Below, piece after piece: positions 336 through 61,500 of a DNA stretch of 64,000 bases. The notes beneath the pieces were generated by a model. That model was not told the DNA's origin and searched no databases. It saw nothing but the letters and a program-made list of their open reading frames with translations. This stretch comes from Stramenopiles sp. TOSAG23-3 (taxonomy: Eukaryota), in contig LT642152.1 in the NCBI GenBank assembly GCA_900128585.1, positions 1 to 64,000 of the forward strand, in the 5' to 3' direction. A program made the translations under genes and the position numbers. How positions within the stretch are numbered: position 1 is the first letter of the stretch; each line of letters starts with the position of its first letter.

Positions 336-2945
336 ATGAAGCCAAAGCTACCAATTCATTTGTTACTAGGGGCGTTTGTCCTTGTGCTCCTTTCCAACAA
401 TGTGATTGCAAATAAACCGTGTCCTGCGGGCGAATTTCGTACATCCATCTATGCGCGTTGCAATAAATGTGATCCGGGCACTTGGCGAAAATCTAGTGAA
501 GTAAAAGTAGAAAAATGCACTGACTGCCCACCAGGTAAAAGCACAGAACCTACGGGGCCGGGGGGGGGACATCCGGGGGGAGTCCCCGGAGCAACTTCAG
601 AATCGATGTGCACACCGTGCCATAATGGGTATTACTCAAAAAATGGCGGAAGGTTCGCTTGTCGACGATGTGAGTTAGGGAAGGGCAGTACCAAAGGTGC
701 CGTTTCTTGCAGCACTTGTGCGCCTGGCCGGTACCACGACTTCGGCCCAACTGGTCACACAACTGGTGACCTTCCGTGCAGTGCGTGCCCGCGTGGCAAA
801 TATGGCGACCAAGAAGGTGCAAACTTTGAGCACCAGTCTTGTAAAGTGTGCCGTGGTGGAAAAGTCAGCGATGAAGGTGCGACTTCATGCAGACGGTGCC
901 CGCATGGTAGTGTTACTAACTATAATAGCATACTACGTATAATGGAATGCAAGCTGTGTGCCGCTGGGAAGTGGCACAAAGAAGGGGAAAATCGGTGTCG
1001 GTTGTGCCCAGTTGGGACAGAAGGGGGGCCATTGGGAGCGAAATCCTCATCGCTTTGCAAGAAATGTCCTGTTGGAACATATGGCAGTAAAGTCATAAGC
1101 TGGGGAGTCCACACAAAAAATGTATGCCATCGATGTTATCATGGACAGTTTAGTTCCGTCGAAGGAGCATCGGAATGCACTAAGTGCAGGGGAAGTGCAA
1201 TAAGGGTACGGGGCGCAAACTCGTCATCAAATGCATGCCAGGCATGCCCTGAAGGGAAGTGGGCTGGTGGCGGTAATAAATTGGGCAAATGTATCCCGTG
1301 CAAGAAAGGAACTAGTTCGGAGTCGGGTGCAACATCAAGTAAGGATTGCAAACCTTGTCGTTTAGGGACATATTTCCAGTCTCAGTTCAGCACAGTATGT
1401 ACCAAATGCCCTGTGGGGAGAACAACTGACACTATCGGCGAAATCGGCTACCCTAACCCCTGCAAGGCATGCCCTGAAGGAAAGATGAGCATGAAAGCAG
1501 GTACAACATGTACCAACATATCGTCATGCCCCGCGGGATGGTACAAAAACCATGCGGGCTGTGACAAATGCCCACCTGGGAAGTGGAATAGTGAGGAAGG
1601 CGCGACTTGTAGGAACTGTCCTGTAAGTACGTACTCGTCAGGTTCTCGCGTCTCGTGTGAAAAATGCCCTAGCGGGAAGGTAAGTGGAGCAGGCACCAAA
1701 TACAAGCACCAGTGTAAATCTTGTCCCAAAGGTAAATTTGAAAACCAGGGCCAGTGCGAAAATTGCACTGCGGGTAAATACGGTCATTATCCAGGAGATT
1801 GCAGGCAGTGCAACACGGCCACGTACAGCTCCCCGGGTGCACAGACTTGCACAAAATGCCCCCGTGGAAGATGGAGTAATAAAGCAGGTTTAACATCACC
1901 CGAGAACTGTACAAAGTGTAGGGCAGGGACAGAGTCTTGGGGGACAGTTCCTACAATTTTCAAGTGCAAAGAGTGCTCCGTGGGAAGGTGGAGTGAAGCG
2001 GGTGAAATGTGTGGCTTATGCCCCTCTGGGAAAGTTTACAAAGCCAAGAGTATCTTCAAGAGTGCGGGATGCGCACAATGCCCCCCCGGGAAAAAATCAT
2101 ACAGTGGGCACCATGCAGTTTGCACAGACTGTCAGAGCGGAAGATTCAGCAAGAAAGGCTCATCGACGTGTACAGCTTGCGCTGCTGGGAAGTACCAGCC
2201 AAGTGAAAACAGTGCTATCTGTAATAATTGCCCCGCGGGAAAGTGGAGCGACAAAGTGGGGTCACCGAGTGATACTTGCACGAAGTGCATTGCAGGAAAA
2301 TGGGGCAACAAAGAAGCCGCAAGTTCTGGATCGGATTGTCAGATATGTCCTGCGGGCACTTGGAGCCGCAAAGAGGGCGCGTCATCACGCACTTGCACAA
2401 AATGTATTGCAGGAAAATGGAGCAGCAAAGAAGGCGCAACTTCGGAAATGGATTGCAAGAAATGCCCTGCGGGAACGTGGAGCGACAAAGTGGGGTCACC
2501 GAGATATACTTGCACAAAATGTCCGGCAGGGACCTTCAGTTCCATACCCGGCGCCACAAACGAAACTACCTGCGAGGCTTGCCAAGGGGGATACTGGAGT
2601 GACGCAATCGGTGCATCGTCAGAGAGAGTCTGTAGACTGTGCCCCCCAAAACGACCCAACTCCCCCCCTGCCAGCTCGTCCATCAAGGACTGTGGCAAGT
2701 CTACCACCGAGCTCATGCGGGACATGGCGAAGACTGTCGACCGGCTGGCAAAGCTCAAAGGCATCACGGACAGCGTCGTGGAGACAACTGTAAAGAACCC
2801 CACGATCAAAGCGAAAATGAAGCGGGATTCCGTCGAAATGGACGTCCAGAAGCAGTACGACAGGATGGAAAGCGCGCCCAGACCATTGCAACGTTCCCGA
2901 CCATCGCACTGGACGGTGACGATTCGGACGGAATTGCCTGCCTGA
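336..2945 (+). CDS. Secreted cysteine-rich repeat protein (TNFR/ephrin-receptor-like CxxCPxG repeats); N-terminal part of a frame-broken gene
   Basis: ATG 336, hydrophobic signal peptide (MKPKLPIHLLLGAFVLVLLSNNVIA), dozens of CxxCPxG(T/K)(Y/W/F) repeats to about 2690. Coding-like codon pattern in this frame stops near 2870. Confidence 0.9.
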   Translation: MKPKLPIHLLLGAFVLVLLSNNVIANKPCPAGEFRTSIYARCNKCDPGTWRKSSEVKVEKCTDCPPGKSTEPTGPGGGHPGGVPGATSESMCTPCHNGYYSKNGGRFACRRCELGKGSTKGAVSCSTCAPGRYHDFGPTGHTTGDLPCSACPRGKYGDQEGANFEHQSCKVCRGGKVSDEGATSCRRCPHGSVTNYNSILRIMECKLCAAGKWHKEGENRCRLCPVGTEGGPLGAKSSSLCKKCPVGTYGSKVISWGVHTKNVCHRCYHGQFSSVEGASECTKCRGSAIRVRGANSSSNACQACPEGKWAGGGNKLGKCIPCKKGTSSESGATSSKDCKPCRLGTYFQSQFSTVCTKCPVGRTTDTIGEIGYPNPCKACPEGKMSMKAGTTCTNISSCPAGWYKNHAGCDKCPPGKWNSEEGATCRNCPVSTYSSGSRVSCEKCPSGKVSGAGTKYKHQCKSCPKGKFENQGQCENCTAGKYGHYPGDCRQCNTATYSSPGAQTCTKCPRGRWSNKAGLTSPENCTKCRAGTESWGTVPTIFKCKECSVGRWSEAGEMCGLCPSGKVYKAKSIFKSAGCAQCPPGKKSYSGHHAVCTDCQSGRFSKKGSSTCTACAAGKYQPSENSAICNNCPAGKWSDKVGSPSDTCTKCIAGKWGNKEAASSGSDCQICPAGTWSRKEGASSRTCTKCIAGKWSSKEGATSEMDCKKCPAGTWSDKVGSPRYTCTKCPAGTFSSIPGATNETTCEACQGGYWSDAIGASSERVCRLCPPKRPNSPPASSSIKDCGKSTTELMRDMAKTVDRLAKLKGITDSVVETTVKNPTIKAKMKRDSVEMDVQKQYDRMESAPRPLQRSRPSHWTVTIRTELPA

Positions 2946-4819
2946 CCACGAACCGCGATATGATTGTGGACGCGTTCTGCAACTTTCGCGCGACCTTCGA
3001 CGATACCCTGCGGTCTCACGGGCTGTACAGAAAACAAAACAGTTCTGGGAAAGCCTTCTGGCCCCGAATTTGCTGTGCAAACGAAGGGGATTGCAAGGAT
3101 CACCCAGCGACGATCAAACAGACAGACATGCGACCCTTCGTGATGGCCCAAGGCGGGACACCGACGAAGGAGGCCATGCGGGGCGAAATCTTCGACCTCT
3201 TGGGACGCCACTCAAAAGGTGATTCGCGAGTCGACGGTTTAATCGTCAATGGGATGCTGAAAGCGATCGAAGGGGTACAAAGTCGCGTAGAGGAAAAGGC
3301 GGGTGCAACCCTGCGAAAAGAGATGAAGGGCGCCTTCGCATCGATGAACCTGTGCGGCCCGCGCGTGATGGCTTTGCCGGGCAAGGAAACGACGAGTTTG
3401 TGTGAGCTGTTCTACTCGTACCCTCACTTGATGAAAAGCTTTCAGGAGCAGTTCAAAGCGATGTTGCCTGCAGCAGCAGGGAAAAGGAGAAGATTGCTGG
3501 CGCACGAGCGCGGTATGTCTACAAATTCAAAAATTGGGAACCACTCCTCCTATGCTGCGGGTGTATTAAATGCAATTCTACAAAAGGTGGATAAAGTGGA
3601 GAAGGAGGACCAAGCGCTCCGTAAAGAGAATAACGAGATGCGCGAACACGAAAAGCGGATGCAGCAGCAGATGCAGCAAGGCTTCAAATCAAAAGGGGAG
3701 GAAATCAACGCACTTCGAAGACAGCTTAGCCTCGGCAGCGTACAGGGGACACTAAAGGCTCTGACGAGCCAAGTCGCGCGACTGCAACCGTCCCGGCGAT
3801 CCTCGTGCTTGAGCGACATGGCCAAGCTCAAGTTTGCCTCTCGAGAAGCCCTGAAAGAGAAGCAGGAACAGTTCTGCAAAGAGTACGGCCTCGACCTGTC
3901 GGACGCTCGCATCGTAAACGTCGCGATGGTGTACCTTGGGAACGACTGGGGCAAGGATGGCTTCCTTCGGCGGCTCCAAGACGGTGCCAAGTTCAGCATC
4001 ACGGACCAGTGCATGCACGACAAAATGTTTACGCCGAACGACGTGTCCATCCAAGAAATCGATAAAATGGACGCGCCGAAAGGAACGAAAGAATGGGTCC
4101 TTTTGATGAAGCTGGACTGGGCGAACGAGAAGGGCTACTTGGCAAGCCAGCTCCAAGACTCAAAGGACGACAACAAGTGTCGCAAGCTGGACTACCTGCC
4201 GCACACGGAGATCGGCCTTCAAGTGTACGAAGACAAGGAGAAGTGCTGCGAGGATTCAAAGGATTTCTGGGTCTGCACCGCGAAGGGATGCTCCGTGGAG
4301 CGGGTAGACCACCATTGGAGGGAGCAGCCGTTGTCTTTCAAACTGTCGGTGACTGGGTCGGTGTTCTCGTGGAAATTACACGAATTTTTGCTGGAAGGTA
4401 CCCAGTTCACCAAAGCGACAAAACCGAACAAGCTGGTCATGGGAAAGAACATGAACGGTGGCGACGCGAAGATGCCCTCTTTGCTAGAGCTCGGCTCTGA
4501 CGTGGATCCAATCCCGAAAGACGTCTTCGAGGCCTTTCGCGAGCACGCTGTGGCGACCACGCAGAGCAAGGCAGCAAAGGAGATATTGGAGGGCGTCACG
4601 TACGATGGAACGGCCTTTGCGTTTCAGTGCGGAACGAGCAAGCGGCTGTGCACGGAGTTGACCGCGCAGAGTAGGCGCGTGGAACCGTTGACGTTCGTGT
4701 ACAAGGAGTGGACCTTTGCACTCAAAGGCGACGGGCAGTTTGTGGGCTATGAGGTGGACGAGAAAGTGGGTAATCAGCGGCGCCGGCTGCTGCGGTTTCG
4801 TGGCGGCGGCGGGTCGTAG
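2870..4819 (+). CDS. C-terminal continuation (-1 frame) of the 336 gene: GKRRRLLA site, coiled coil, VY-x5-CC domain, RFRGGGGS tail
   Basis: ORF 2639-4819 has no signal peptide and only reads protein-like from about 2870 (KRAQTIATFPTIALDG). Its C-terminus resembles that of the 40451-45913 protein. Confidence 0.8.
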   Translation, partial: KRAQTIATFPTIALDGDDSDGIACLTTNRDMIVDAFCNFRATFDDTLRSHGLYRKQNSSGKAFWPRICCANEGDCKDHPATIKQTDMRPFVMAQGGTPTKEAMRGEIFDLLGRHSKGDSRVDGLIVNGMLKAIEGVQSRVEEKAGATLRKEMKGAFASMNLCGPRVMALPGKETTSLCELFYSYPHLMKSFQEQFKAMLPAAAGKRRRLLAHERGMSTNSKIGNHSSYAAGVLNAILQKVDKVEKEDQALRKENNEMREHEKRMQQQMQQGFKSKGEEINALRRQLSLGSVQGTLKALTSQVARLQPSRRSSCLSDMAKLKFASREALKEKQEQFCKEYGLDLSDARIVNVAMVYLGNDWGKDGFLRRLQDGAKFSITDQCMHDKMFTPNDVSIQEIDKMDAPKGTKEWVLLMKLDWANEKGYLASQLQDSKDDNKCRKLDYLPHTEIGLQVYEDKEKCCEDSKDFWVCTAKGCSVERVDHHWREQPLSFKLSVTGSVFSWKLHEFLLEGTQFTKATKPNKLVMGKNMNGGDAKMPSLLELGSDVDPIPKDVFEAFREHAVATTQSKAAKEILEGVTYDGTAFAFQCGTSKRLCTELTAQSRRVEPLTFVYKEWTFALKGDGQFVGYEVDEKVGNQRRRLLRFRGGGGS

Positions 4820-4937
4820 ATACGAGGTACGTAAGTTAATATTAAATATGTTTATTGAAAAAGCAAACACAGGGTATATAAATTGCTACATCCATAAAAT
4901 AGACACCTACTCCAGACGAACGAGCTGGTCAGAAAAT

Positions 4938-5348
4938 ATGTCCACACGGGGAGAGGAATTACCAAATGCATCTATAAAACTCGAGGACGGCACGCTGGCG
5001 AGAAAGGGTTGCCTGTTTTCCTTCCAAAATTACGAGGGTGACGAGGACAATAGCCTGTATCTTGCAGCAATCACAGACAAGGGTTACTTGAAGTTCCTAA
5101 CCGAGGGGGCTTTCGGCCTTGACATAAAGAGTCAGTTCCACGGCGAGACACATGCGGAACTTTACCTTCCTCTGTCCGTCGCTGCGGAGTCTCTGGTGTG
5201 CTACAGCAGAGGGGACTTGGTAAATACGACACGGATCACGGAGAAGAGGTGTCTTCCAAAAGGATACTGCTGTCCATTCCGCCTCCGCTACTGTCATTGC
5301 TATGCCTCTCGAAGGCGACAAGGGCATACTCAGGCAATTTTATCCTAA
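4938..5348 (+). other. Orphan ORF or possible decayed gene fragment
   Basis: ATG 4938 (MSTRGEELPNASIKLEDG...). GC content is coding-like compared with the spacers; no recognisable family. Confidence 0.25.
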
Positions 5349-27419: not shown

Positions 27420-29345
27420 TTAATCAATGTCATCAATTGGGTCGTCTTTTGACGATCCTTTGGGTTTTTCGATTATAACAGTTGGCGCCTGTTTCTTTGG
27501 TTTTGTCAACGCGGACAAATCGATGTCCGTCAGGTCATCGTCCCCATAGCCCCACTCGTCCACTTCATCGTTCGCGGGGGCTGCGGAAGCCTTGCTGCTC
27601 GACGCACCTGCGGTGTCCGTCAGCAAAAGGTCCCCGTTCGCTTTTTTACCCGTCAACATCAGGGTCATCTCTTTGTTGCCCTTGAACCGGGCGTTTTCAA
27701 GCTTATTGATGAGGCTGTACTTTCCGTCTTTCTTGCTATCGTATTTGATGCCATAACTTGCACACACTGCCTTCAGCTCCTCCGTTTCCATCGTGTGCAA
27801 ATTTGATGGCAAGTCTTCATTGTCCACGTCGCCAATCCCCGCGGTATCGTAGCCAACATCCGTCGTCTCCAGCGCGTCTTTGTGCGCGCCGCTGGTCAGC
27901 AGCAGGGTTTTCTTTTGCCGCAAATGCTTTGCTAGTCGCCCTATCAGTTCTGTCTTCGGGTCACTCGTTTTCGTCTCCGTGCTAAGGCCGTTCAATTCGC
28001 ACTGGTTTCGAAGAATCCGTTCGTTCAGCATCCAAAGTTGCCCCACCTGCCGGCCGCTCATTTCCCAGGTCTTCAACATCATGGCGTCCTCTTGGGCAGA
28101 CTGTTTGCTCTGCTTGCTGTGCCTTTCTGCCTCCAGGCGTCGCAGTTTGGCCTGGTAGCTCTTGATCTTTGCGGCATCGTTACAGCCAATCAGGTGCGCG
28201 CGGGCAGGGCCTATTTTCTCGCCCTTTGCTGCTTTTTGCGGCAGTTCCGCGCGGGTAATCCCACAACGAGGGCAAACTTCAATTAACCCTTTCACGAACA
28301 ATCGTTCGTTGTCGTTCAGTTTCTCAGCATGCGACTTTTTAAAAGCTTGGCTGGGTTCCCTCTGCGTGTAACGGTTTGCCCGCCTCTGCCGCTGGGCTCG
28401 TTTTCGAGCAGCATTTTCTTGCATTTCTTTTGCCTCGATCCGCACTTCCCGCTCACGGCGCTCGCTGCAATCAAAATACCAGAACCCAAACGCCTTTTTG
28501 CAACTCGGATTTCCGCACAATATTTTGCGGTGGTAATCTTCGGGATCGTAATCGAACTTATTGTTGCACCGGGGGCAATAATGGTCTGCTGTCATTGCCC
28601 CAAATTGGCAGGCGCATCTTCCGCAGACGTACTGTTTGATTGCTTGCATGAAAAAATTGTACGAAGGTTTCTCCAATCCCAGCTGTGCGGCGCCCCATCG
28701 GATGTGGCACCGCGGACAGTGAATTCTGGTCTTGTAACAACCATCGTTGGACCGCTGCACGCGCTCCACCTTTCGCCGCTTTCCCTTGTTGGCATCGGTG
28801 TCGTCGTCTGTTTGCGGGCTGGACAAAGTCTCGAAGGCGACGACAAGGCACTGGAATGCACCCTTCGCCTCTGCGGAGCCTTGGTGCTTGTCTGGATGGA
28901 TGTGCCGACTAAGTTTCAAATACGCTTTCCGCATGGTTGCCGTGCTGGACGTGGCAGTTATTACGACACCGGACAAAGACAGAAGCGCCGCGTGCTCATC
29001 GGCAAGCTCCGTTACCTTTTTGATGAGCATCTTTGGGGAAATCTTCGATGCTCCTGCGTCCTCCGCCGCTTTTTTATCCTCGGAGTTGCCGGCGTTGTGC
29101 TCCTGCAAATATTTTGCGAGGCGCATGACGAGCTCATCCTTTACTCCAACCGGGGACAACCCGCTCTGAGCCAAAGTCTTTTTGATTGCACCAGTTGTCA
29201 TTTTTCGCACTTTGATCGCTTCGTCAAAATTCAAACACAGGGAGTTGTGTCCTTTACGGCAGCCACACGCAGGTGTACAGGAGGCCCCGGCCTTTGAGCA
29301 CGGGCACTTTTTGCAAGCTCCCATCTTCGTACATTTGCATGGCAT
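27420..29345 (-). CDS. Multidomain protein: CXC-like Cys cluster, SAP-like motifs, J domain, zinc ribbons
   Basis: CKCTKMGACKKCPC...CTPACGC; LAQSGLSPVGVKDELVMRL (SAP); MRKAYLKLSRHIHPDK (J domain, HPD); several CxxC pairs. Confidence 0.85.
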   Translation of the reverse strand: MPCKCTKMGACKKCPCSKAGASCTPACGCRKGHNSLCLNFDEAIKVRKMTTGAIKKTLAQSGLSPVGVKDELVMRLAKYLQEHNAGNSEDKKAAEDAGASKISPKMLIKKVTELADEHAALLSLSGVVITATSSTATMRKAYLKLSRHIHPDKHQGSAEAKGAFQCLVVAFETLSSPQTDDDTDANKGKRRKVERVQRSNDGCYKTRIHCPRCHIRWGAAQLGLEKPSYNFFMQAIKQYVCGRCACQFGAMTADHYCPRCNNKFDYDPEDYHRKILCGNPSCKKAFGFWYFDCSERREREVRIEAKEMQENAARKRAQRQRRANRYTQREPSQAFKKSHAEKLNDNERLFVKGLIEVCPRCGITRAELPQKAAKGEKIGPARAHLIGCNDAAKIKSYQAKLRRLEAERHSKQSKQSAQEDAMMLKTWEMSGRQVGQLWMLNERILRNQCELNGLSTETKTSDPKTELIGRLAKHLRQKKTLLLTSGAHKDALETTDVGYDTAGIGDVDNEDLPSNLHTMETEELKAVCASYGIKYDSKKDGKYSLINKLENARFKGNKEMTLMLTGKKANGDLLLTDTAGASSSKASAAPANDEVDEWGYGDDDLTDIDLSALTKPKKQAPTVIIEKPKGSSKDDPIDDID

Positions 29346-30247
29346 CTTTGAACCAGTGGGTTAAAAGCTAAACTCCGTTTGGGTGTAGAACTGGAACGAT
29401 AATCAGCAACTTTACTAAAAAACAACTGCACTCACTAACTGTACATAGGAAAACGCTTATTTGTGTCGGGGTGTATGTTTCACTGAGAGAATATATTATG
29501 TTATTCGTACTGTAATATAATGTATACATCGATCTTACGACCCAACATTCAACATTCAAAATCGGAGATAGAAGAAGATGGGCGGCTCGGCGGTTGGCGG
29601 TCGTGGCAGTGGTGGGGAACCACCCTATTATTTTGTAGTCTAACAACAATGTTCTCTGGTTGTGTGGTGTAATAAAGAAGTGGTAAAAAATTCCCCACCA
29701 TTTACGAGTACATCGTACATCATCATCATTGTCTCCGAGATAAGCCACTTAAAATTAAGGATATGTGTTTATAGGGATAACTGGTATAAGACCCTTTTGG
29801 TATGATAAGGCTATATGTGTAAAGGGATTTAGATGAAATCATTTATTGATATTAATTATAACCATAAATAGAATTAAAAAAGTGATAACGTATTCATACT
29901 TTATATATACACAGCATCTATAATCTTTATATATATATATCCTTAATTAAATTGAGAGTACCGAGTGTGGAGAGCCACCACACCACTGAAATCTTTAATG
30001 ACATTAGTATTTATGTTCACTTGCTATAAGGATGTTAAAATAAATCATTTTCGTTGTTTTCGTCGTACGTTTTCTTCTTCTTCTTGTTGTTTTCTTTTCT
30101 CATTCTTGTGTGTCCACCGCCACCTCAATATGTACGATGTAGAATATTAGAGGGAATCTTGGATTGTATTACGATCCCCCCCGAGACTCGCAAAAGCACA
30201 CCATTCGTCCTAATCGAAGTTTCACCCCCTTGGAAACGTATAATTTG

Positions 30248-40450: not shown

Positions 40451-43400
40451 ATGGCGCACACTGCATTGTTTTTCAGCGCGTTGCTGGTTTGCTTTGCGCA
40501 AGCAGCAGAGAGAACGTCTTCTACCTTGTATGCACTGAAGGGTTTGGAGGATCCGAAAACCGAATTATTGCCGAAAAGTTTTGAGTCTTGCGAACGACGT
40601 TGCGATGTTGATATAGACGGCCTTGAGGAAGGCCCAGACATGCAAGATGCTTTGCGAAATGCATTTATTTGCCGCAAGCAGGCTAGGGACCAGTGCCAAG
40701 CGGATCTGTGCAACTTGGGATACCAGTGTTTCACGGAAACCAAAGAGCTTGTCTCGGCCGACTTAGACTCCATCTTTGGGGAGGGGTTGTGCCGGTTGGA
40801 ACGATTGAATGAAAAAGGAACCAACACGAAGGCAGTAGTGCTAGAGAAAGATGACGTTGAGGTTTGTAAACAGAAAAAATACGAACACATAGACTTTACT
40901 GAATCCGTCACAAAAGGCTTTCTTGGAGACAGATCATTTTACTTTCAGCAGCCAGGAAGTGGCGACGCGAAATACTTGTGGGAAGCTGTCCTTCGGTTTC
41001 TCGATGGTGGGCTTGACGAAGCTGGGCTGGTGGGGCGTGGGGGAAAAACTCCCACCGAAAAAATGGACATGTTCTGCCGGCAGTTCAAAGGCGACGACAC
41101 CAAATTGAAACTTAGTGCTCAGAGGGCAAGTTTTGACCTGCCGCGGCGTACATACAACCGAATGTGTCCTTTCGACAGGGCAGTAGCACGGCATATATCC
41201 CGGGGCCTGCTGTACGTTTTCGCAGAGCTAATCAACACTATGAGCGATGTGCTGCGCGAAAAGAATAAGCTGACGAAGTTTGTGCCCGGAAATGGATGGT
41301 GCAAGTACAAGAAGGGCCAAGCAAGCGTGTGCCGATACTGGTGTCGGAAACCGAAGAATTGGGCAAAGCTGGCAGAGACTGCGAAAGCATTGTTGACAAA
41401 GTTTGAAAACTGTGTAGCAGAAGGCGCCTTTGCTTCTGCGAAAGACGACAGCTGCAAACTTCCGGGGTTTCGACCGCTGTTAGACAAAATAGAATCGTTG
41501 AGAACAAAAGATAACCCGTTTGCAGAGTGGTACATGACCGCCTCAAACATGATGCATGGATGCCCGTCCGAGATACTAAATAAAGCAGAACTCAAAGGTG
41601 TCATTCACCACGATATGGACGGTGTGATGGGATTCATCACGGACCCTTCGGCCCCCAAAGCCCCAGGATTAGACAGACTAAGCGCAGGAAATACCCACGT
41701 GTGCGGTATTACGAACGATGGCTCGGTTGAATGCTTTGGGTTTGAAAACGCCTCTGTTATTTTCCCTACGAAAGGCAAATTTGTGCAAGTCAGCACAGCC
41801 TCCGACTCTGCCTTTCCGTGGACGTGCGGTTTGACCGACGATGGTGTCGCGGAATGCTGGGGCACTACCGGAGAGGATAGCATTACGTCAAAAAACCGTA
41901 TATGGCTGAAGAATAAGGGGAAGTATATATGTAGAGACTCTCCGCACTTTCAATGCAAGTGCAAGTCAAAGCACGACAAGAAAGGCAAAGGTAGGTGGTG
42001 CTCACTTTCGCACACGAACATTGTGTTGTGCGGGAAATTTAGGTGCGAGTTCGCTCCGCCATCGATCGACAAAAGCGAAGCCCACGGACGGTTTGTCCAA
42101 ATTAGTGTTGGCCAGCCTAATGTCAATTATGCATGTGGGGTAAGCGTCTTGGGCGCTATTTATTGCTGGGGTTTATGTGGCAAGGCCACTTGCAACGACC
42201 ACCAGCCTCGAGTGCCTATAAATGGGGAGAAGTACTTAAAAGTGAGCACAGGTGAAAATTATGCGTGTGGGTTTACTGACACCGGGTACCTGGAATGCTT
42301 CGGGTCAGGTGTGGGCCCGCACATTCCCGAGTCAATTCTCCCAGGCGCAGTCGACCCAAGTGCATCAAAATTTGTCGATGTCAGCTCGGCGCATTTACAA
42401 ACATGTGGCCTCACCGACGTGGGATCAATCATATGTTACAGCGCGCAAAAGAAACGAGATGATCCATACAAATCGCTGGGGTTCAACGGGCGAAGGAAAA
42501 TCCCAAAAGCTGAGGGCGCAAAGTATGTTCGGGTGTACACTTACCACACTGCGAACAGTTCTGCAACTCCTTACATAGGCCATACGTGCGGCCTCACAGA
42601 CGGTGGGACTGCGGAATGCTGGGGCGACAACTCGTGGGACAACGAGGTAAATAGTTACCAGCCAATAAAGTATAGCAAGACCGTGGACTTTGCCCAGCTC
42701 GCATTGAGTCGCCAAAGGACCTGTGGACTGGGAATGGACGGGAAAATTTTCTGCCAGGGCGCGTACGTCAGCGGCATAAAAAACAATGATTACGCTCCCC
42801 CGACTAAAGGGGACAAGTTTGTACAGTTAAGTCTTGGTCGATCCCATTCTTGTGGTCTGGCAAGCGATGGCCAAATACACTGCATTGGGGCGGATGGTGA
42901 ACCCAGCGAAGAAGTTCCCGGGCTGACATCACAGGGCGCCCAATGGTTGCGAGATTTCCGCAGCTCCGGACCAAGGTTGCTGATGGGAAGTCTTTCTTCA
43001 AAATTCTCTCGCATGTGTACGGGTCCCGACTTCACGTGTGGACTTCGCCTTAGTAGGAGTAAGAAGGTAAACGGAACAATTTACTGTTTTGGCAGTAACA
43101 TTATCAATTACGTTCGCAACCCGTGGAAGAGTCAAGACAAGAGTCAATTTGTTGACCTCGACTGCGGTGGACTCGGGGCATGCGGTTTGACCGCATCGGG
43201 TAAGATAGAGTGCAGGGGAATAGACATTGCGCAAATCAACAGGAACAAGTTGCTGTCGCCCGCACCCGGCAAAGGCAAACGGTTCGTGGCCATCTCTGCG
43301 GGCAACCACATGACTTGTGGTGTGTCTGACACGAACGAAGTCACTTGCTTTACGGACAAAGAGAGCGCCCAGTACTTTCCGATACCCGAGAATTTTGACG

Positions 43401-45913
43401 AAGGCCAAAAGATAGTGAAAATTAGCATGGCAGGTTCTGCGTTTTGCGCTATACTAGAGAAAGGCGCGTTGAAGTGTATATTCACACGAAACGAAACCAA
43501 CAGATTTGTCGATAGCCTATCGCGAAAGTACAACAAGCCTCGTAAAATTATTGACCACACGGTCCACCCCATGAAAGGCACTGGGCAAAGATTTATTGAT
43601 GTAGGTGTAGGCTGGGGTACCATGATATGTGGCGTGACCAATTGGGGTATTGCGCAGTGTTTCGGCTCCAATCAATATGGGGGCCCTCACTTTTACGACC
43701 CAAAGTATGGAACTTACCCTGAAAGGTTTGTGAGCGTGTCTGTCGGTAAGACGCATGCATGTGGACTGACTAACTTTGGCAAAAGCCAGTGTTGGATGTC
43801 CGACATAGTTGGCGAATCTAATGGCTTCAAACAATGGACGCCAAAGCCCCATACATTCCCGCCCCCTGGGTGTATCCAAGGTTCCAAAGGCCTGAATTGC
43901 GCATTGAGAGATTCTGGTGTGCACTTGGAAGCTGGTATATTTGTTGATGAGCACGAAGAGTTCCCTTTCGTTATTCATCAGGGTGTCGTTGTCGACAATG
44001 TAATAATTTCAACAAAGCCAATGGAGGAAATCGATCTTACGGATGCCAAAGACTCGGCGGCAAAGAAAAAGTACATAGAGGAAGCAAAGAAGCGGCACAT
44101 CGCTCGTGACACGATCCACATGAGTGCAGAGTTGGAAGGCAACGAGATCGCTCTTCGGGTAAAGGGGTGGTTCGAAGACTACACCAGAACTTGGAAAGGG
44201 GCGTCCGCTAAAGTCGACAGAATGTTTGCAAAGCTTGGTGTATTTTCGGGGACCGNNNNNNNNNNNNNNNNNNNNNNNNNNNNNNNNNNNNNNNNNNNNN
44301 NNNNNNNNNNNNNNNNNNNNNNNTCAGAGAGTAATTTTCTTGGAGGAAAGGGGCACTTTAAAGATCAAATCAAAGGACTGAAAGACATGGGTGCTGCAAA
44401 CTTTTTGAAAGATGCCAAAAAGAGGAAAAAAATAGGCAAGATAGCCCTAACCCCCGAATCGAGAGAGAAACGGAAGAAGCGCAAGGAAAAACGAGAGAAA
44501 GAGTTCCAGGAGAGGATGGAAAAGAAAATAGTCAAAGAAAGAGCCCTATGTAAACAAATTTATGAAGGGAAAATCTTGCACTTCATGCACAAGCCAATCG
44601 GGAAGGCGTCCGTTTTGAAAAAAGGTATCGTGAAGAGGATTAAAGTCGAGCTGCACAAGAAGAGGTTCCCGGTATGCATGTGCCATGTGGAAGGTTTAAA
44701 ACAGCCTGTGAAATGCCATGAGGCAACCAATGCCATTGAACTGTCACGAGACGCGCAAGTGCACGCCAGCGGGAAGCACCATAAAGTGATCACGCAGGAT
44801 ATGGAATTGTCTGAACCGGATGTGAGACGTTTTCTCCGGCTGGCTCATGTTCCAGCAGAGAAATCGCCCGAAGAACGACACGATTTCGTGAAGAACACAA
44901 TATACCCGCTGGTGAAGAATACTATTGTCGAAGAAGGCTTTACGAAGGAGGTGGCAATGGCATTCCTTAAGCGCCACGTTCCCATCCCCACTGCGCCTAG
45001 CGATGTCACGTTTGGAAACAAGGAAGTGCCACCGCCTCCGCAAGCCACGGGGGCTGCGGCCGGTGGGGTGCCGAAGGTGAAGTCTGGGCGAAGACTTCTC
45101 GCTGCAGTGCGAAAGGGAAAGAATGGTAATTGCAAATGCAAAGCGAAATGGTGGTATGAGCACTTCTATTATTACGGTTGTGATGTCCGCCGCCCAGGGG
45201 GTGGAGAAGCATGGTGTTACACGAAGGGCACGTGCGAGGGCAAACAGTACAGAACGTGTACGGATCGTGTCCAGGAGCTGGAAAAAAAAATTAAAGACTT
45301 GGAGAAAAAAGTTCCTGGGGGCAAAATCCTGAAACTCCAAAAAGCTGTCGATGCTCCAATAGCAAAAAGCTCGTTGGTCAAAAGCGGGTCTGACAAAGCA
45401 CTGAAAGTAACGGACACGGATAATGCTAACTTGAACGGTGTCAACTCGGTTGATGTGAAAGTGGGAGGGTTGAACGGGAAGACGAAGAAACTAGTGGCCG
45501 ATGGTGTTACAGAAGTGCAATACATTTTCGAAATTAAAGGCAAAGAAAAATTCTTTAAGGAAGAGGAGTTGAGGTATGATAACCCCACCGGGATGATCCA
45601 GGCAGTCTATGACTGCTCAAAGAAAGGTAGCGCGAAGAAGATATGTAGCATGCAAAAGAAGTCTGTTAAGGACCCAGTAAACCTGAAGGTGTTTGTATAC
45701 CAGTCGGACTTTTTGTGCTGCAAGTACCCTGGTGGCTCAAAGGGCACCTCCTTTACCAACTGCCAAGAATTGAAGAAAGGCTGCAAACAAGACCTGACAG
45801 TATCTCGTGAATTTTCAGTAACCATCAAGGGATTTGGATATGATGTCGCAGAGATTAAAAAGGGACGTAGAAAGCTTCTAATGCAACGTTTCCGCGGCGG
45901 TGGTGGCAGTTAA
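40451..45913 (+). CDS. Giant secreted protein with RCC1/CRINKLY4-like repeats, an FN2-like module and an RFRGGGGS tail
   Basis: Signal peptide; many F.Q.S.G..H.CG(L/V)T..G...C(F/W)G repeats; SGRRLLA; CKCKAKW...GC...WCYT; VYQSDFLCC; RRKLLMQRFRGGGGS-stop. Spans a 68-N gap, so the frame across it is unverified. Confidence 0.85.
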   Translation: MAHTALFFSALLVCFAQAAERTSSTLYALKGLEDPKTELLPKSFESCERRCDVDIDGLEEGPDMQDALRNAFICRKQARDQCQADLCNLGYQCFTETKELVSADLDSIFGEGLCRLERLNEKGTNTKAVVLEKDDVEVCKQKKYEHIDFTESVTKGFLGDRSFYFQQPGSGDAKYLWEAVLRFLDGGLDEAGLVGRGGKTPTEKMDMFCRQFKGDDTKLKLSAQRASFDLPRRTYNRMCPFDRAVARHISRGLLYVFAELINTMSDVLREKNKLTKFVPGNGWCKYKKGQASVCRYWCRKPKNWAKLAETAKALLTKFENCVAEGAFASAKDDSCKLPGFRPLLDKIESLRTKDNPFAEWYMTASNMMHGCPSEILNKAELKGVIHHDMDGVMGFITDPSAPKAPGLDRLSAGNTHVCGITNDGSVECFGFENASVIFPTKGKFVQVSTASDSAFPWTCGLTDDGVAECWGTTGEDSITSKNRIWLKNKGKYICRDSPHFQCKCKSKHDKKGKGRWCSLSHTNIVLCGKFRCEFAPPSIDKSEAHGRFVQISVGQPNVNYACGVSVLGAIYCWGLCGKATCNDHQPRVPINGEKYLKVSTGENYACGFTDTGYLECFGSGVGPHIPESILPGAVDPSASKFVDVSSAHLQTCGLTDVGSIICYSAQKKRDDPYKSLGFNGRRKIPKAEGAKYVRVYTYHTANSSATPYIGHTCGLTDGGTAECWGDNSWDNEVNSYQPIKYSKTVDFAQLALSRQRTCGLGMDGKIFCQGAYVSGIKNNDYAPPTKGDKFVQLSLGRSHSCGLASDGQIHCIGADGEPSEEVPGLTSQGAQWLRDFRSSGPRLLMGSLSSKFSRMCTGPDFTCGLRLSRSKKVNGTIYCFGSNIINYVRNPWKSQDKSQFVDLDCGGLGACGLTASGKIECRGIDIAQINRNKLLSPAPGKGKRFVAISAGNHMTCGVSDTNEVTCFTDKESAQYFPIPENFDEGQKIVKISMAGSAFCAILEKGALKCIFTRNETNRFVDSLSRKYNKPRKIIDHTVHPMKGTGQRFIDVGVGWGTMICGVTNWGIAQCFGSNQYGGPHFYDPKYGTYPERFVSVSVGKTHACGLTNFGKSQCWMSDIVGESNGFKQWTPKPHTFPPPGCIQGSKGLNCALRDSGVHLEAGIFVDEHEEFPFVIHQGVVVDNVIISTKPMEEIDLTDAKDSAAKKKYIEEAKKRHIARDTIHMSAELEGNEIALRVKGWFEDYTRTWKGASAKVDRMFAKLGVFSGTXXXXXXXXXXXXXXXXXXXXXXXSESNFLGGKGHFKDQIKGLKDMGAANFLKDAKKRKKIGKIALTPESREKRKKRKEKREKEFQERMEKKIVKERALCKQIYEGKILHFMHKPIGKASVLKKGIVKRIKVELHKKRFPVCMCHVEGLKQPVKCHEATNAIELSRDAQVHASGKHHKVITQDMELSEPDVRRFLRLAHVPAEKSPEERHDFVKNTIYPLVKNTIVEEGFTKEVAMAFLKRHVPIPTAPSDVTFGNKEVPPPPQATGAAAGGVPKVKSGRRLLAAVRKGKNGNCKCKAKWWYEHFYYYGCDVRRPGGGEAWCYTKGTCEGKQYRTCTDRVQELEKKIKDLEKKVPGGKILKLQKAVDAPIAKSSLVKSGSDKALKVTDTDNANLNGVNSVDVKVGGLNGKTKKLVADGVTEVQYIFEIKGKEKFFKEEELRYDNPTGMIQAVYDCSKKGSAKKICSMQKKSVKDPVNLKVFVYQSDFLCCKYPGGSKGTSFTNCQELKKGCKQDLTVSREFSVTIKGFGYDVAEIKKGRRKLLMQRFRGGGGS
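44256..44323. other. Assembly gap (68 N)
   Basis: Run of n characters. Confidence 1.
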
Positions 45914-48361: not shown

Positions 48362-50572
48362 TTATATTGACTTATCTTGAAATGTCTCCCAATTTCCTTT
48401 TGTCGGCCCAAAACCTGCAGAGTGCGACTTTTCAGCGACAGTCTTCAGCTCCACATTTGTAAAATTACACGCTTTAGCTAGCGCTTGGTATTCCCCTCGC
48501 GTTGTCGTTTGGCTAAGCAGTGAATTGTCGCAGCATGGTACAATAGTGATGCCAGCATCGAAAAATGCTCGGGCCGGGTGGTCCGAAATGGATGAGATGC
48601 TTCCTGTGTGCACGTTACTGCAGGGGCATATTTCAATCGCAATATTTTTTGCTGATAGTGTGCTTTGCAACGAGCCTGATGCGCGGGCTGCAACCCCATG
48701 CCCTATCCTAGTTGCGTGCAGTCGTTCCACGGCGGTTACGATGTTCTTTTCAGCCTGCTCCGACTTCCCTTCCCCTGCATGAATGGTGATGCCAAGCCCG
48801 TTGGCGTGAACAAAATCAAACGCTTCGATGAATTTCTCTGGAGGATGGTCATATTCATTTCCTGCCAGATCAACTCCGACCACGAGTTTGTCCAAACCAT
48901 GCTTGCATGCTAATTTTGCCATTACCATAGCCTCCTCAGCCCCGAAGTCCCGCAGTATAGTAACTATTTGGTAAAATGAACACTGTGGATACGATTCCAT
49001 AGCCCTGCTTAAACCACGACATACGGCATCGATAATGTCATCATCACCCAGCCCCTCCTGGCGGTGCAGACTAGGGCAATATCGAACTTCCGCGTACGTA
49101 ACGTTCGACTTCAGGTATAAATCTTCGCATATTTCATACGCTACACGCTCCAGCGCATCTTTATCTTGCAAGACCAGCAGTGTTGTTGCAAATGATTGGA
49201 GGCATCGCGGCAAGTCCCAACCGATTTTAAAAGCGAGGTGTTTTTCTACATCATCTGTTGACTCGAAGGTATATAAGTTGCCTTCCCCACTTTTGACTTT
49301 CTGCGAGTACAATTCGAGAAACGTTTCTGGACGCAAGCTCCCGTCCAAATGAACGTGCAACTCTGCCAGCCCACAATCAACACTCTCGAACATACCCTTG
49401 AAGTGACTTGTCAGTACTAAGTCGGCGTCGAATAGATTCTGCTCTTCACGCCCTCTTTTGGTCTGTTCAGCCGAGTCGATACGCGTTAAGCCGCAGACAT
49501 TGTCGTGGTGGTCGGAGCCTAAATGGTCTTTGAAACACTGCGTACATAGTCGAATGTCTGTAAGAGCTTGGGCAACCATTTCGCTCGATGTCGGACGTCG
49601 ACCGGGCGAAATCAACAAAAGCCTTCGCAGATAGCCGCATATCTCTTGCCAGCCGGCGAGTTCCCCGGCAGACGCCATGAGCTCTTGGCACGCGTCTCGA
49701 ACTACTCGAATCATCCGATTCGTCCGGCCTTTAAAAATGTCCATGTCGTTCATGGCTGATCTTGAAAATGGCCCGTTGTCTATGACGCTTTCTTGAAAAA
49801 AAGATAAACCAAACACGGTCTCCAAAAGTGTCATGCCGCAGCTCCACATGTCTCCCGCTTTTCCATCGTATTGGGTCTCTGTGAACATCTCCGGTGGGAT
49901 GAAACCTGCAGAGCCTACTGCCCCAGTTAGTTTACGAAGACCACTGTTGCTCGGTGACGTTCGAACGGCATAGTCAAAATCTATAAGGACTGGATGACTT
50001 CGGTACCATTCCTCTCCTGGGTACAGTATTACACATATGTTTTCGGGCTTAATGTCTCGATGACACCACCCGTTTGAGTGCATGAACGCCACCGCATCGA
50101 AAAGTTTCAAAAATACTCCCAAAACAACTTGCGGCTGCGCTATTTTTTGCCCTTCAATCTGAAGCAAGTGCGTTTTTAATGACCCACCGTGCCACGGGTA
50201 AACGATCCGGCAGTGAGTTGGGCTCAAAGTCGCGCTCACGTCGAGTATACTCGTAACGCTCGGGTGCCTTGCCCCTAAATCTTTCAACGCCTTTATTTCA
50301 ACCAGAAGTCGATTTTTCCGTTTTGTAAGGGCTTCTCCGCCGCCAGTTGTCCCCAGGGCCTCCCAATTAACAAATTTGCAGGCTACGCTTTCACGTACGT
50401 TTTCGCCCGTGTACCTTGTGGCTTGCACCACTGAGGTGGCACCAGTGTTGTACGTTTCTGACTCAGTTTCGTATCGATATGTTTGCGTTGATTCACCGGG
50501 GCTATCGAGAAGTGGAACAGGGAAGATGGGCTTTTCCCACTCAAGTTGTACAATTTCGTTGAACTGACTCAT
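48362..50572 (-). CDS. Ser/Thr kinase-adenosine deaminase fusion
   Basis: Kinase motifs VACK, HRDIKPEN, DFD, GSAGFIPPE, DMWSCG; deaminase motifs ELHVHLDGS, YAEVRY, GVDLAGNE, HAGE, RIGHG, EICPCSN, CDN. One ORF; ATG 50572. Confidence 0.9.
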   Translation of the reverse strand: MSQFNEIVQLEWEKPIFPVPLLDSPGESTQTYRYETESETYNTGATSVVQATRYTGENVRESVACKFVNWEALGTTGGGEALTKRKNRLLVEIKALKDLGARHPSVTSILDVSATLSPTHCRIVYPWHGGSLKTHLLQIEGQKIAQPQVVLGVFLKLFDAVAFMHSNGWCHRDIKPENICVILYPGEEWYRSHPVLIDFDYAVRTSPSNSGLRKLTGAVGSAGFIPPEMFTETQYDGKAGDMWSCGMTLLETVFGLSFFQESVIDNGPFSRSAMNDMDIFKGRTNRMIRVVRDACQELMASAGELAGWQEICGYLRRLLLISPGRRPTSSEMVAQALTDIRLCTQCFKDHLGSDHHDNVCGLTRIDSAEQTKRGREEQNLFDADLVLTSHFKGMFESVDCGLAELHVHLDGSLRPETFLELYSQKVKSGEGNLYTFESTDDVEKHLAFKIGWDLPRCLQSFATTLLVLQDKDALERVAYEICEDLYLKSNVTYAEVRYCPSLHRQEGLGDDDIIDAVCRGLSRAMESYPQCSFYQIVTILRDFGAEEAMVMAKLACKHGLDKLVVGVDLAGNEYDHPPEKFIEAFDFVHANGLGITIHAGEGKSEQAEKNIVTAVERLHATRIGHGVAARASGSLQSTLSAKNIAIEICPCSNVHTGSISSISDHPARAFFDAGITIVPCCDNSLLSQTTTRGEYQALAKACNFTNVELKTVAEKSHSAGFGPTKGNWETFQDKSI

Positions 50573-51112
50573 CGCAATACTGTAAAAATCGTTTTGGCCA
50601 GTCCGGGTATCTTCTTGTCGTGCCGTTTTTTCCAACCTTCTATATTGCCCGAAATTGAACACCCGCAGCAACAAAACGACGATAATGTTGAAAGAATTAT
50701 AGAAGATTTAAAATACGAAGTATGAAAAGATACACACCCACATTTTCTTCTGCGATTCAACTATTTTTTAAAAATTATTATTATTATTATTTATTATTAG
50801 TAGTCGTCCAATAATTAATAATATTTTCTTCTTCTCTCCTCCTCTCCTCTCTCCTCTCTCCTCTTCTTCCCTCTCTCTCTATTTTTTTCTTCTCTTTCTT
50901 CTTCTTCTTCTTCTTCGTCGTGTTGTTGGTTGTTGTGGGTGGTGTGTGGTGTATGTCGTCGGGGTTCCTTTTTTTTCTTACCCCCTTTCGGATACCTGGT
51001 AGTACGGGTACCGTTATGTAATAAACAAACGCAACCAACCGTAGTATTAATAATAGATTCACAAGTTTATCATTAATATTTTTACTGTTTCAGGAACAAA
51101 TTATATAGTATG

Positions 51113-59042: not shown

Positions 59043-60626
59043 TTACCGCCTTGCTCCAAACCCGTCACCCTCGAAGTTTGTTTTCTTGTGCCCACACCTA
59101 TTGAACACGCCCGTGCCATCGTTACCGTTTTCGTTCCCGTCGCAATCTGCGTTTTCGTACGCAGTCTCGTAATAATTGGTGTAATACGTTGAATAAAACC
59201 CTGCGTAGTACATTGCATAATACAACTGTGAAGGCGCGTAGTTGCAGTACTGACAGTACACCTTCTTGTGGAAACAATAGTAGCAGTAGTAGTCCTGCAG
59301 AGGATTGTGCGTCATGGAATGCATCAGCGCTGGAATAATTGAGTGAGTCAGGGACTTTCCAAGAATAGACGAAATGCCGTTAGCGGTCAAACGAGAAATT
59401 TGGACCCCCGTGTCCTCGGTTGCTTTAACCGATGACGCCTCTGTCAACGAGCTGGTTAAACTCGAGGTCAACACCGGGGCCAAACCATCGGTAACGAGTT
59501 TAGGGACGACTTCGTGCAGGCTCCCAGAAACAGATTCTATGACCGAGTCCACCATGGATTCGTGGGCCGACTGAAGGATTTTTTCGCCCATTTGCGACCC
59601 CATACGGGGAATAAGTTCTCTGTACACATCGCGCTTTATATTCATGGCGAGCTCCTCCGGCATTTGCATGGCTAGGGTACCGCCGACAATTAGTGCCTCG
59701 TGGGTCAACCACCTGTCCATGGTGGCCGCCCAAACTGTTGCAACTTGTCCGTCGGCCAGGCCTGCTACTTTGTCCATGTACTCATCCACTCCCACCCACT
59801 GGGTTTGTAAGTGCGACATGTCCATAGACGACAGCTCTGCTAACGATGTTAACTTTCCATTCATCATGTGGCCTTTTAGTTTTGCCATAAGGGCAATGTC
59901 ATTTACGTCTATTTGTGTGACGGGCTTTCGCCCTGGTGTGCACTTGCCACGCTTTCCCAGACGGAAGCGCCTTGAAGTGCCCGCTACAGGTTTCCCCTGC
60001 GCGTTTGTCAGCAGTACTTTCTCGCGAATTATCTGCTCTGGCGGGGGCAGAAAGCGCAAGCGACAACTTTCAATATCCTCTTCACTCATAACGTGGTGAG
60101 AATACCCGTGCTTCAGCGAGTAATTTAAGAACAAAAACGCCTGGTATGTGTTGTTATGGACCGCAGGCCCCCCAAAGAGGCTCGGAAGCGTTGCCGGACT
60201 TGTCGTGGACAACCGATCGATTACATTTAAGTTCGTTGGCGGTTTCTCCAAGTTGAAAACAGGGTTGTGCACATCGTCTTTCTCGTCGGAGACGGGCTGG
60301 AACGATTCAAATATCCTATTCCCGCATATCATTCTGGTACTACCTGCTAATGATTTGGAAGAATCGTAATGTATCGTTTCATTGAACTGCACGGAAAAAA
60401 CAGCGGCCGTGTAGTAATATGGAAGTCGAGGCTCTCCCTTGCAGTTCTGGGGCGAGTGCGACGTGCATTCGGTTTCCCACTCAAAGCCGATTGATCTTAT
60501 CTCGACACTGGTTTTTTCTATGGGTATATGGCCGTGTGCGCTATTCGACCCACCACATCCTAGACTCAGACACATACACACAAACATCAATGCCCGTGGC
60601 ATCGGCAATTGTACCACGCCCCCCAT
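59043..60626 (-). CDS. Uncharacterised, probably secreted protein with a Tyr/Cys-rich C-terminus
   Basis: Long ORF; likely signal near MPRALMFVCMCLSLGCG; DYYCYYCFHKKVYCQYCNY...YYAMYYAGFYSTYYTNYY. The start codon is uncertain. Confidence 0.75.
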   Translation of the reverse strand: MGGVVQLPMPRALMFVCMCLSLGCGGSNSAHGHIPIEKTSVEIRSIGFEWETECTSHSPQNCKGEPRLPYYYTAAVFSVQFNETIHYDSSKSLAGSTRMICGNRIFESFQPVSDEKDDVHNPVFNLEKPPTNLNVIDRLSTTSPATLPSLFGGPAVHNNTYQAFLFLNYSLKHGYSHHVMSEEDIESCRLRFLPPPEQIIREKVLLTNAQGKPVAGTSRRFRLGKRGKCTPGRKPVTQIDVNDIALMAKLKGHMMNGKLTSLAELSSMDMSHLQTQWVGVDEYMDKVAGLADGQVATVWAATMDRWLTHEALIVGGTLAMQMPEELAMNIKRDVYRELIPRMGSQMGEKILQSAHESMVDSVIESVSGSLHEVVPKLVTDGLAPVLTSSLTSSLTEASSVKATEDTGVQISRLTANGISSILGKSLTHSIIPALMHSMTHNPLQDYYCYYCFHKKVYCQYCNYAPSQLYYAMYYAGFYSTYYTNYYETAYENADCDGNENGNDGTGVFNRCGHKKTNFEGDGFGARR

Positions 60627-61500
60627 GCTTGGTTCCAGTCGTCTCCAACGCAACGGTCCAAAGTGCCCAAACGAGCAAATGCCAGAACAGGAGCTTGGCA
60701 GTATGGTCTGTTCGAAACGTTTGAACACCTTTCCACAAAAATAAATGGTGATGGTGAATGCTGTTAAATATCCAACCATTCGGCGGCAGCACAGAATTGT
60801 GCGGCTAACATTTATCTTATGTATTGCATGGCAGTCCACAGTTCATCGCTTTCAACGTATTTATTATTAAACCAAACTTTAAATTTCTATTATTTGATCA
60901 GTAGTATCATCGGAATTATTTGTTTTATTATAAGAAGATAGTAGCTAGCTCATCATCATTATTATTAATTCTGTTTCTTTCTTCGTCTTCTTCTTCGGCC
61001 TCCTTTCTTCTATTACGTATATGATGGTGCATTCCTGTAAAGAAATATTAATACAACTATGTACACTATAATACAAGCCCCCCCCCCTCTTTTCCCTTTT
61101 CCCTTTTCCCTTTTCCTCTCTCTAAAATTATTGCGTTTTTAAAATCATCCTAAATATACAAACGATGTTATTTATATGTAGTTAAAGTTTATGATATTCA
61201 TATACTTAAATATAATATTTGATAGAATTAATTGATCATATTTGGTATAAATACAGTGTTGCTAATACATTTGTATTGAAAAAATACATCTCTAGTTTAC
61301 GAATTAAAGTGTACTACGAATTATTTTGGTTACAGGTACCTGGGAACTGTGACACTGTGACAAGCCAAAACAACGACTTCTGTCTTCTTCTTCCTTGGTT
61401 CCAAGTTCCTCCTCGGTATAAGTATATAGTATGGATTATTTATTCTACGATTTTGGGTTTGAAAGAGAGTGGTTGGTTGGGTTAGTGGCTATCAATTGAT

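Follow-up and report, generated by a model that had tools for sequence, protein, structure and literature searches.

The window analysed here, the first 64,000 nucleotides of contig LT642152.1 from Stramenopiles sp. TOSAG23-3, carries two genes, A and B, which encode large signal-bearing modular proteins built on two partly related scaffolds. In our preferred reading, to which we give an even chance, both proteins are cut at conserved joints, as predicted from their motifs, and thereby yield several extracellular products. The order of the modules, the motifs at their borders, the wider family, a gene for site-1 protease (S1P) and a transcript-sized contig of gene B are direct observations. 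Together they describe a real, transcribed-looking and apparently undescribed family of secreted modular proteins restricted to one lineage. No description of it was found in the open-licence literature, and the only lineage label met, 'Stramenopile-MAST_4', stands on a member of a relative's cluster, which makes that lineage probable.

Scaffold A runs from a signal through a variable array, a helical segment, a domain termed M, the joint, an optional coil or collagen stretch, a domain C1, an optional domain C2 and RR-x-LL to a short tail. Its C-terminal profile matches 187 clusters worldwide among 1.84 billion proteins; the 40 longest (585 residues or more) among 150 listed of these clusters are called the long relatives below. 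M, which has 15 matches in the genome and 23 invariant columns in its alignment, is present by eye in 39 of the 40 and was absent from the viral and prokaryote contig collections scanned. The remaining protein, P0045, combines collagen and a different repeat array with C1 and the tail and represents a further scaffold variant. Directly after M, one of two motif types follows in 38 of the 39 proteins as read by eye: an RRLL type (RR, RK, RH or RQ, then L/M-L) in 15, an S-F-L-E/Q type (S/A-F/L-L/I/V-E/Q/D) in 22, both in one and neither in one. Similarly, the 13 joints read among this genome's 15 M matches comprise six of the RRLL type and seven of the S-F-L-E/Q type, that of L053 being taken from its database version P0042. 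The motifs at the joints persist where the neighbouring sequence varies, which supports their reading as cut sites. At the C-terminal end, RR-x-LL is found in 35 of the 40 long relatives (18 ending in Cys, 12 in Ser and five otherwise), and the tail seems cut short or altered in the other five.

In gene A the internal site lies within AAAGKRRRLLAHE (3470-3508, RRLL at 3488), and in gene B within KSGRRLLAAV (45080-45109, RRLL at 45089). An earlier note on this DNA had placed both within a few codons, and had likewise recognised the tails of the two genes at 4778-4819 and 45866-45913. In all three known proteins of scaffold B, RR-x-L(L/M) occupies the corresponding internal position and is followed by a coil, which is short in B and long in L059 and P0003. 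R-x-x-L or R-x-L-x motifs mark four sites in A and B, and they stand at module borders in relatives. The note had gone further and made two cuts at RRLL the rule, which fails because 23 of the 39 long relatives have no RRLL-type motif at that joint; many members have no coil either, so that the pairing of internal RRLL and coil holds for part of the family only. It had overlooked the M domain of about 200 residues, the SLLE of gene A and a 43-residue Cys module in gene B.

A candidate protease exists for the RRLL type. The genome contains one clear S1P gene (PF23090, E 2.5e-108; a 1004-residue open reading frame, ORF, with D/H/S triad motifs), and S1P is described as cutting RxxL/RxLx and as freeing C-terminal peptides such as RALF23 in plants (PMC13082318). 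For secreted proteins of diatoms, RXL is suspected to be a cleavage motif (PMC9650480), and SFLE/SFhE is given as the consensus of plasmepsin IX/X substrates (PMC9804387). This second type is represented at the M joint of 22 of the 39 relatives and by the SLLE of A at 4478, where the surrounding loop has a pLDDT below 50 (model residues 222-245), and is absent from B; the genome encodes 10 aspartyl proteases. The best evidence for a polyprotein comes from a stand-alone C2 gene with the same border motif: the 167-codon ORF of L007 consists of signal, SLLE, C2, RRRLL and RFRGGGGC, and is 60% identical to the C2 of A. Since C2 exists both alone, starting at SLLE, and as the closing module of a long chain, SLLE would mark a product boundary, and the comparison supports a polyprotein organisation.

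The kinship between A and B is real yet small. When the parts after the internal sites are compared by BLASTP, the alignment is confined to the final ~60 residues (E 6e-6), and profile-profile comparison gives just 67 homologous columns (probability 96, E 3.6e-9), which correspond to the tail and to that half of C1 in A which carries 'V-VY-D---CC...C...C'. A genome search with the C-terminal part of B returned its paralogue L059 as sole match and not gene A, the converse search matched 17 other places and not gene B, and Pfam had no match for either C-terminal part. A single C-terminal domain shared by both proteins, as the earlier note had it, is therefore rejected by BLASTP, the reciprocal genome searches and the profile comparison; common to the two are only ~65 residues and the RR-x-LL...RFRGGGGS tail. 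The end RFRGGGGS is identical in A, B, L050, L059, P0001 and P0003, across the two scaffolds, and RCC1 arrays occur on both. Scaffold B is known from B, L059 (P0002 being its database version) and P0003, all with RCC1, and B and L059 have a distinct N-domain in common. The idea that this N-domain is a relocated M found no support (hhalign probability 0.3). Scaffold A, with 17 other genome matches and 187 clusters, is a true family; scaffold B counts three known members.

Within scaffold A, mix-and-match of arrays is real. C1 is 83% identical in L055 and L053, yet L055 lacks the RCC1 repeats of L053; A and L050 bear barely similar arrays on C and M parts that are 47-49% identical; and close paralogues differ by gain or loss of payload. 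Pfam recognises TNFR-like, RCC1, Kelch and collagen modules among the 40 long relatives (no match in 22), and F5/8 and PA14 modules in L054. Among members of scaffold B no array exchange was seen, the relatives of B retaining N-domain and RCC1 array. The unrelated N-terminal arrays reported earlier for the two genes are borne out by Pfam (Ephrin_rec_like/TNFR in A, RCC1-like in B), and the exchange then proposed stands within scaffold A, as between L055 and L053, and finds no support between A and B. The constant C-terminal anchor module of that proposal is not borne out, the C-terminal ends coming as C1, C1+C2, C2 alone or the B type, with no hydrophobic C-terminal segment, transmembrane or GPI-type end in A, B and the relatives read by eye.

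Tail DNA itself moves: the terminal 88-155 bases of A recur as orphan copies, 93-95% identical, outside any long ORF at G000:C74:14352-14506 and C2702:1869-1956. The DNA downstream of A (window 4815-5257) is likewise duplicated behind the paralogue L050 (G000:C749:8090-8306) and on a third contig (C891:146-482) at 84-85% identity; some small gene or element lying downstream therefore travelled along with gene A.

Structure models bear on the parts between the joints. Three copies of A's coil plus C1 reached an ipSAE of 0.58 against 0.00 for the best control, with an interface confined to residues 2-75; at least 58% of contacts recur between runs, and the pLDDT of the partner is only 40-42. The ipSAE mark applied is reached by 21 of 30 solved pairs and none of 23 single chains (among eukaryotes, 17 of 29 and none of 30). 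The model supports a parallel coil after the internal site of A, not a trimerising head. Heptad-like stretches do follow the internal sites of both proteins, as noted earlier (from ~3563 in A, 45263-45310 in B); a parallel coil is predicted for A with the copy number imposed, and the stretch of B measures 16 residues. Collagen takes the place between joint and C1 in five of the 40 long relatives (Pfam), and also in P0001 and L054; it occurs only in relatives and not in A and B. M is modelled as a confident helical domain (pLDDT 81.5) and C1 as a moderately confident beta-rich one. Neither M nor C1+C2 (pLDDT 63) had a Foldseek match at E<=0.001, which does not establish a new fold. The best fold match of M is a designed helical filament (Z 7.0, rmsd 4.3, 148 aligned), within the range of unrelated helical bundles; that of C1+C2 is a filamin Ig domain (Z 5.4, rmsd 2.6, 73 aligned), at most a model-based resemblance to a generic Ig-like sandwich. 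The ESM Atlas offered no usable match for M and only sub-0.9 matches for B's C-domain, and NCBIfam a single weak coil match (E 0.0075) far below the cut-off.

From these elements a sequence of events can be proposed. The products of A and B would enter the secretory pathway, where several chains may assemble through the coil or, in relatives, through collagen, with three chains where collagen is present. S1P would then cut after RR-x-L and another protease at S-F/L-L-E/Q. The pieces set free would be the N-terminal array (together with M on scaffold A), a collectin-like stalk with C1 as its head, C2 where present, and the RFRGGGGS peptide. In a bacteria-eating flagellate such pieces might bind prey or surfaces or be used to build a coat outside the cell.

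Several points weigh against this proposal. No cleavage product has been seen and no binding target is known. The family motifs were counted by eye on 40 proteins selected by length, and the comparisons are pairwise; A and B have only 67 profile columns in common, and the coil of B is just 16 residues. The three-copy model has an imposed copy number, an unused alignment and a coil-only interface, and the predictor can pass coils on what it has memorised. Of the 10 aspartyl proteases, the three best were compared, and they resemble cathepsin D/E more closely than plasmepsin X. Taken by itself, RRLL is no commoner than chance predicts, with nine six-frame matches in the window and, for a loose DNA pattern, 36 observed against 35.5 expected; its evidential weight comes from its position in relatives. 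Some members (L050, P0063) carry it behind the signal peptide as well, which makes it a general secretory motif. The FRGGG pattern is mostly noise genome-wide (33 matches against 25 in the control), with seven of 30 fetched matches being true tails; a pattern match on C44 proved unrelated.

Both genes lie among ordinary intron-poor eukaryotic genes and are complete (Table 1). In three public contigs (two DNA, one RNA; X1, X2, X4), 52 additional bases at 2871 bring the two ORFs of gene A into frame, one of the two DNA runs being possibly the assembly's own source. Gene A is therefore no frameshifted pseudogene, a 52-nt assembly loss explaining the break. Two further family genes in the same assembly have frame breaks (L053, C707; L056, C4067), probably assembly losses as well, because the database version of L053 is continuous. 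The N gap of gene B is bridged in frame by two RNA contigs from one sample, by which a fusion of two genes across the gap is rejected, and a 5576-nt RNA contig covers 40434-45964, from 17 bases upstream of the start to 51 past the stop. From X1 and X4 nothing aligned to gene B, which carries no weight as evidence. Parts of gene A are present in 20 public runs from 12 studies, marine wherever the source is named.

Table 1. Genes A and B and their parts (positions in the window)
Feature	Position	Strand	Remark
Gene A (scaffold A)	336..4819	+	~1511 residues with the 52 bases lost at 2871 included
Signal-peptide-like hydrophobic start of A	336..410	+	read from sequence
TNFR/ephrin-receptor-like Cys repeats	411..2690	+	Pfam PF07699, E 1e-51, 12 stretches
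Helical heptad-like segment ahead of M	2700..2871	+	same segment in L050
M domain, helical, seven invariant Cys, no known family	2879..3472	+	alignment; model pLDDT 81.5
Internal KRRRLL, predicted S1P site	3482..3499	+	same slot in relatives
Predicted parallel coiled-coil stalk	3563..3784	+	three-copy model
C1 domain, Cys-containing, beta-rich, no known family	3806..4384	+	
SLLE, second kind of candidate cut site, start of C2	4478..4489	+	low-confidence loop
C2 domain, optional in family, also stand-alone gene	4490..4777	+	
Tail of A, RRRLL-RFRGGGGS-stop	4778..4819	+	RRRLLRFRGGGGS, then stop
Gene B (scaffold B)	40451..45913	+	~1835 residues, intronless; covered by one RNA contig
Signal-peptide-like hydrophobic start of B	40451..40504	+	read from sequence
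B-type N-domain	40520..41650	+	44% identical in sole paralogue; unrelated to M by profile comparison
RCC1-like repeat array	41681..43795	+	Pfam PF13540, PF25390
N gap in gene B	44256..44323	.	RNA contigs have 113 bases here, in frame
Lys/Glu-rich insert and Pro/Ala/Gly linker	44324..45085	+	missing from paralogue
Internal GRRLLA, predicted S1P site	45086..45103	+	RRKLL, RRRLM at same place in two relatives
43-residue Cys module, C-x-C...GC...WC...C...C	45131..45259	+	similar pattern by eye in P0008, P0040
Short heptad stretch, 16 residues	45263..45310	+	much longer in L059, P0003
B-type C-domain	45422..45865	+	from 45674 homologous to second half of C1
Tail of B, RRKLL-MQRFRGGGGS-stop	45866..45913	+	RRKLLMQRFRGGGGS, then stop

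Instead of the large pieces, the end peptide after the last RRLL could be the active product, read by membrane proteins with leucine-rich repeats (LRR), with the large body as a carrier or with a separate job. We regard this as possible, at a rather low probability. Six scaffold-A genes (G000:C667, C5284, C796, C4067, C2332 and C2165) stand tail to tail with a gene combining multiple transmembrane segments, LRR and LNR, and an unrelated 274-residue tail gene also faces a multi-transmembrane LRR gene; with C749 added, the tail-bearing loci so arranged are L055, L011, L057, L056, L058, L020 and L094. The same RFRGGGGS closes six proteins on two scaffolds, and S1P-released peptides have a precedent in plants (PMC13082318). 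Against this, none of the 75 matches of the LRR family in the genome lies on the window's contig, A and B have no such neighbour, and none was found downstream of L050, L051, L053, L054 and L007. Among the ten genes with readable joint and downstream DNA, an LRR neighbour accompanies five of six of the SFLE type versus none of four of the RRLL type, which kinship may explain. A peptide signal would moreover leave the conserved 200-residue M, C1, the collagen and the internal sites unexplained.

Ciliate granule proteins and apicomplexan rhoptry proteins undergo multiple precursor cuts. By analogy, A and B might be precursors destined for storage and regulated release, as in an extrusome or dense-core granule, the cuts turning a soluble precursor into a packed matrix; we hold this to be improbable. 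The second motif type fits the SFLE/SFhE consensus given for plasmepsin IX/X (PMC9804387), and it fills the RRLL slot in 22 of 39 relatives. On the other side, the three of 10 aspartyl proteases that were compared had no plasmepsin-X-like best match, M, C1 and C2 have no homology to known granule proteins in Pfam, and no extrusome paper for the lineage was found in the open-licence literature.

The internal basic motifs might also be uncut linker, A and B being single chains of which only the tail is trimmed or read as a sorting signal. Internal RRLL is missing from 23 of 39 relatives, the linkers are Arg/Lys-rich anyway and the motif is at chance level; the RR-x-LL core, however, is kept across divergent linkers and is swapped for a second defined motif rather than for random sequence, and C2 exists alone starting at SLLE. 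We regard this account as unlikely. Very unlikely, finally, is the polymorphic adhesin of the earlier note, with A and B as two variants of one constant C-terminal anchor module bearing freely exchanged recognition arrays: the range of arrays borne by scaffold A (TNFR-like, RCC1, Kelch, F5/8, PA14) and the decayed A-tail copies (88-155 bases) at two loci speak for it, but A and B lie on different scaffolds without an anchor, an array once cut would part from the C module (the conserved part staying with it being M), and where two isolates or populations were compared in A and B, scattered point changes are the only differences between them.

The preferred reading of predicted cuts at conserved joints can be widened to combinatorial secreted polyproteins, in which exchangeable prey-binding arrays, trimeric stalks and three domains with no assigned fold are joined by interchangeable RRLL and SFLE codes that set where and when the pieces are freed, the end peptide signalling through LRR proteins. 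As a whole this extension seems improbable to us. If true, apicomplexan-style secretory maturation and plant-style peptide signalling would meet in a free-living stramenopile, and the RRLL/SFLE swap in one slot, if real, would extend the maturation code of malaria parasites far outside the alveolates. We know of no molecular account of the way in which abundant, uncultured marine flagellates recognise bacterial prey and keep hold of it. A transcribed-looking, lineage-restricted family whose three domains matched none of the families searched and whose cut sites are precisely predicted is open to direct test.

Some other ORFs deserve mention. On the minus strand of the window, 48362-50707 encodes a protein kinase fused to an adenosine-deaminase-like domain, 59043-60842 a secreted-looking protein with a helical repeat region and a Tyr/Cys-rich end tract (YYCYYCFHKKVYCQYC...YY), and 27420-29360, by eye, a Cys-rich start, SAP-like and DnaJ-like segments and zinc-finger-like motifs in one ORF. 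Elsewhere (L054:6776-8830, C6018), a PTPA-like PP2A activator appears by eye to be fused to a TIP41-like domain.

Among known systems, the family resembles the substrates of S1P/SKI-1 and plant SBT6.1 (proRALF23, proCLEL6) in its signal peptide, in RR-x-L before a short C-terminal peptide and in the presence of an S1P gene. It differs in precursors of 650-1850 residues with folded domains and internal sites too, the cutting being here a prediction. With the substrates of plasmepsin IX/X and of rhoptry and microneme maturases it has an S-F-L-E/Q-type motif in a linker between secreted modules in common, although there is no substrate homology and the lineage, by one label, is not alveolate. Diatom frustule proteins are likewise secreted by stramenopiles and have an Arg-x-Leu motif as candidate cut site (PMC9650480). 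No domains common to them and the family were seen; the family has no silica link, and its motif is longer (RRRLL) and coupled to a tail rich in Gly. Polymorphic toxin and adhesin systems and the mosaic adhesive trimers of Bdellovibrio combine a conserved scaffold with variable modules, as does scaffold A; the present family differs from them in having no anchor or cassette array and no strain-level switching seen, and M was absent from the prokaryote and virus collections scanned. In collectins, C1q/adiponectin and procollagen C-propeptides, a stalk of collagen or coiled coil carries a globular domain at its C-terminal end, an arrangement predicted here too, from the coil model of A and the collagen of relatives, with three chains likely. 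By Pfam, C1 is not C1q, a C-type lectin or COLFI; and in contrast to those proteins the recognisable binding arrays of the family are N-terminal, and its stalk is flanked by candidate cut sites.

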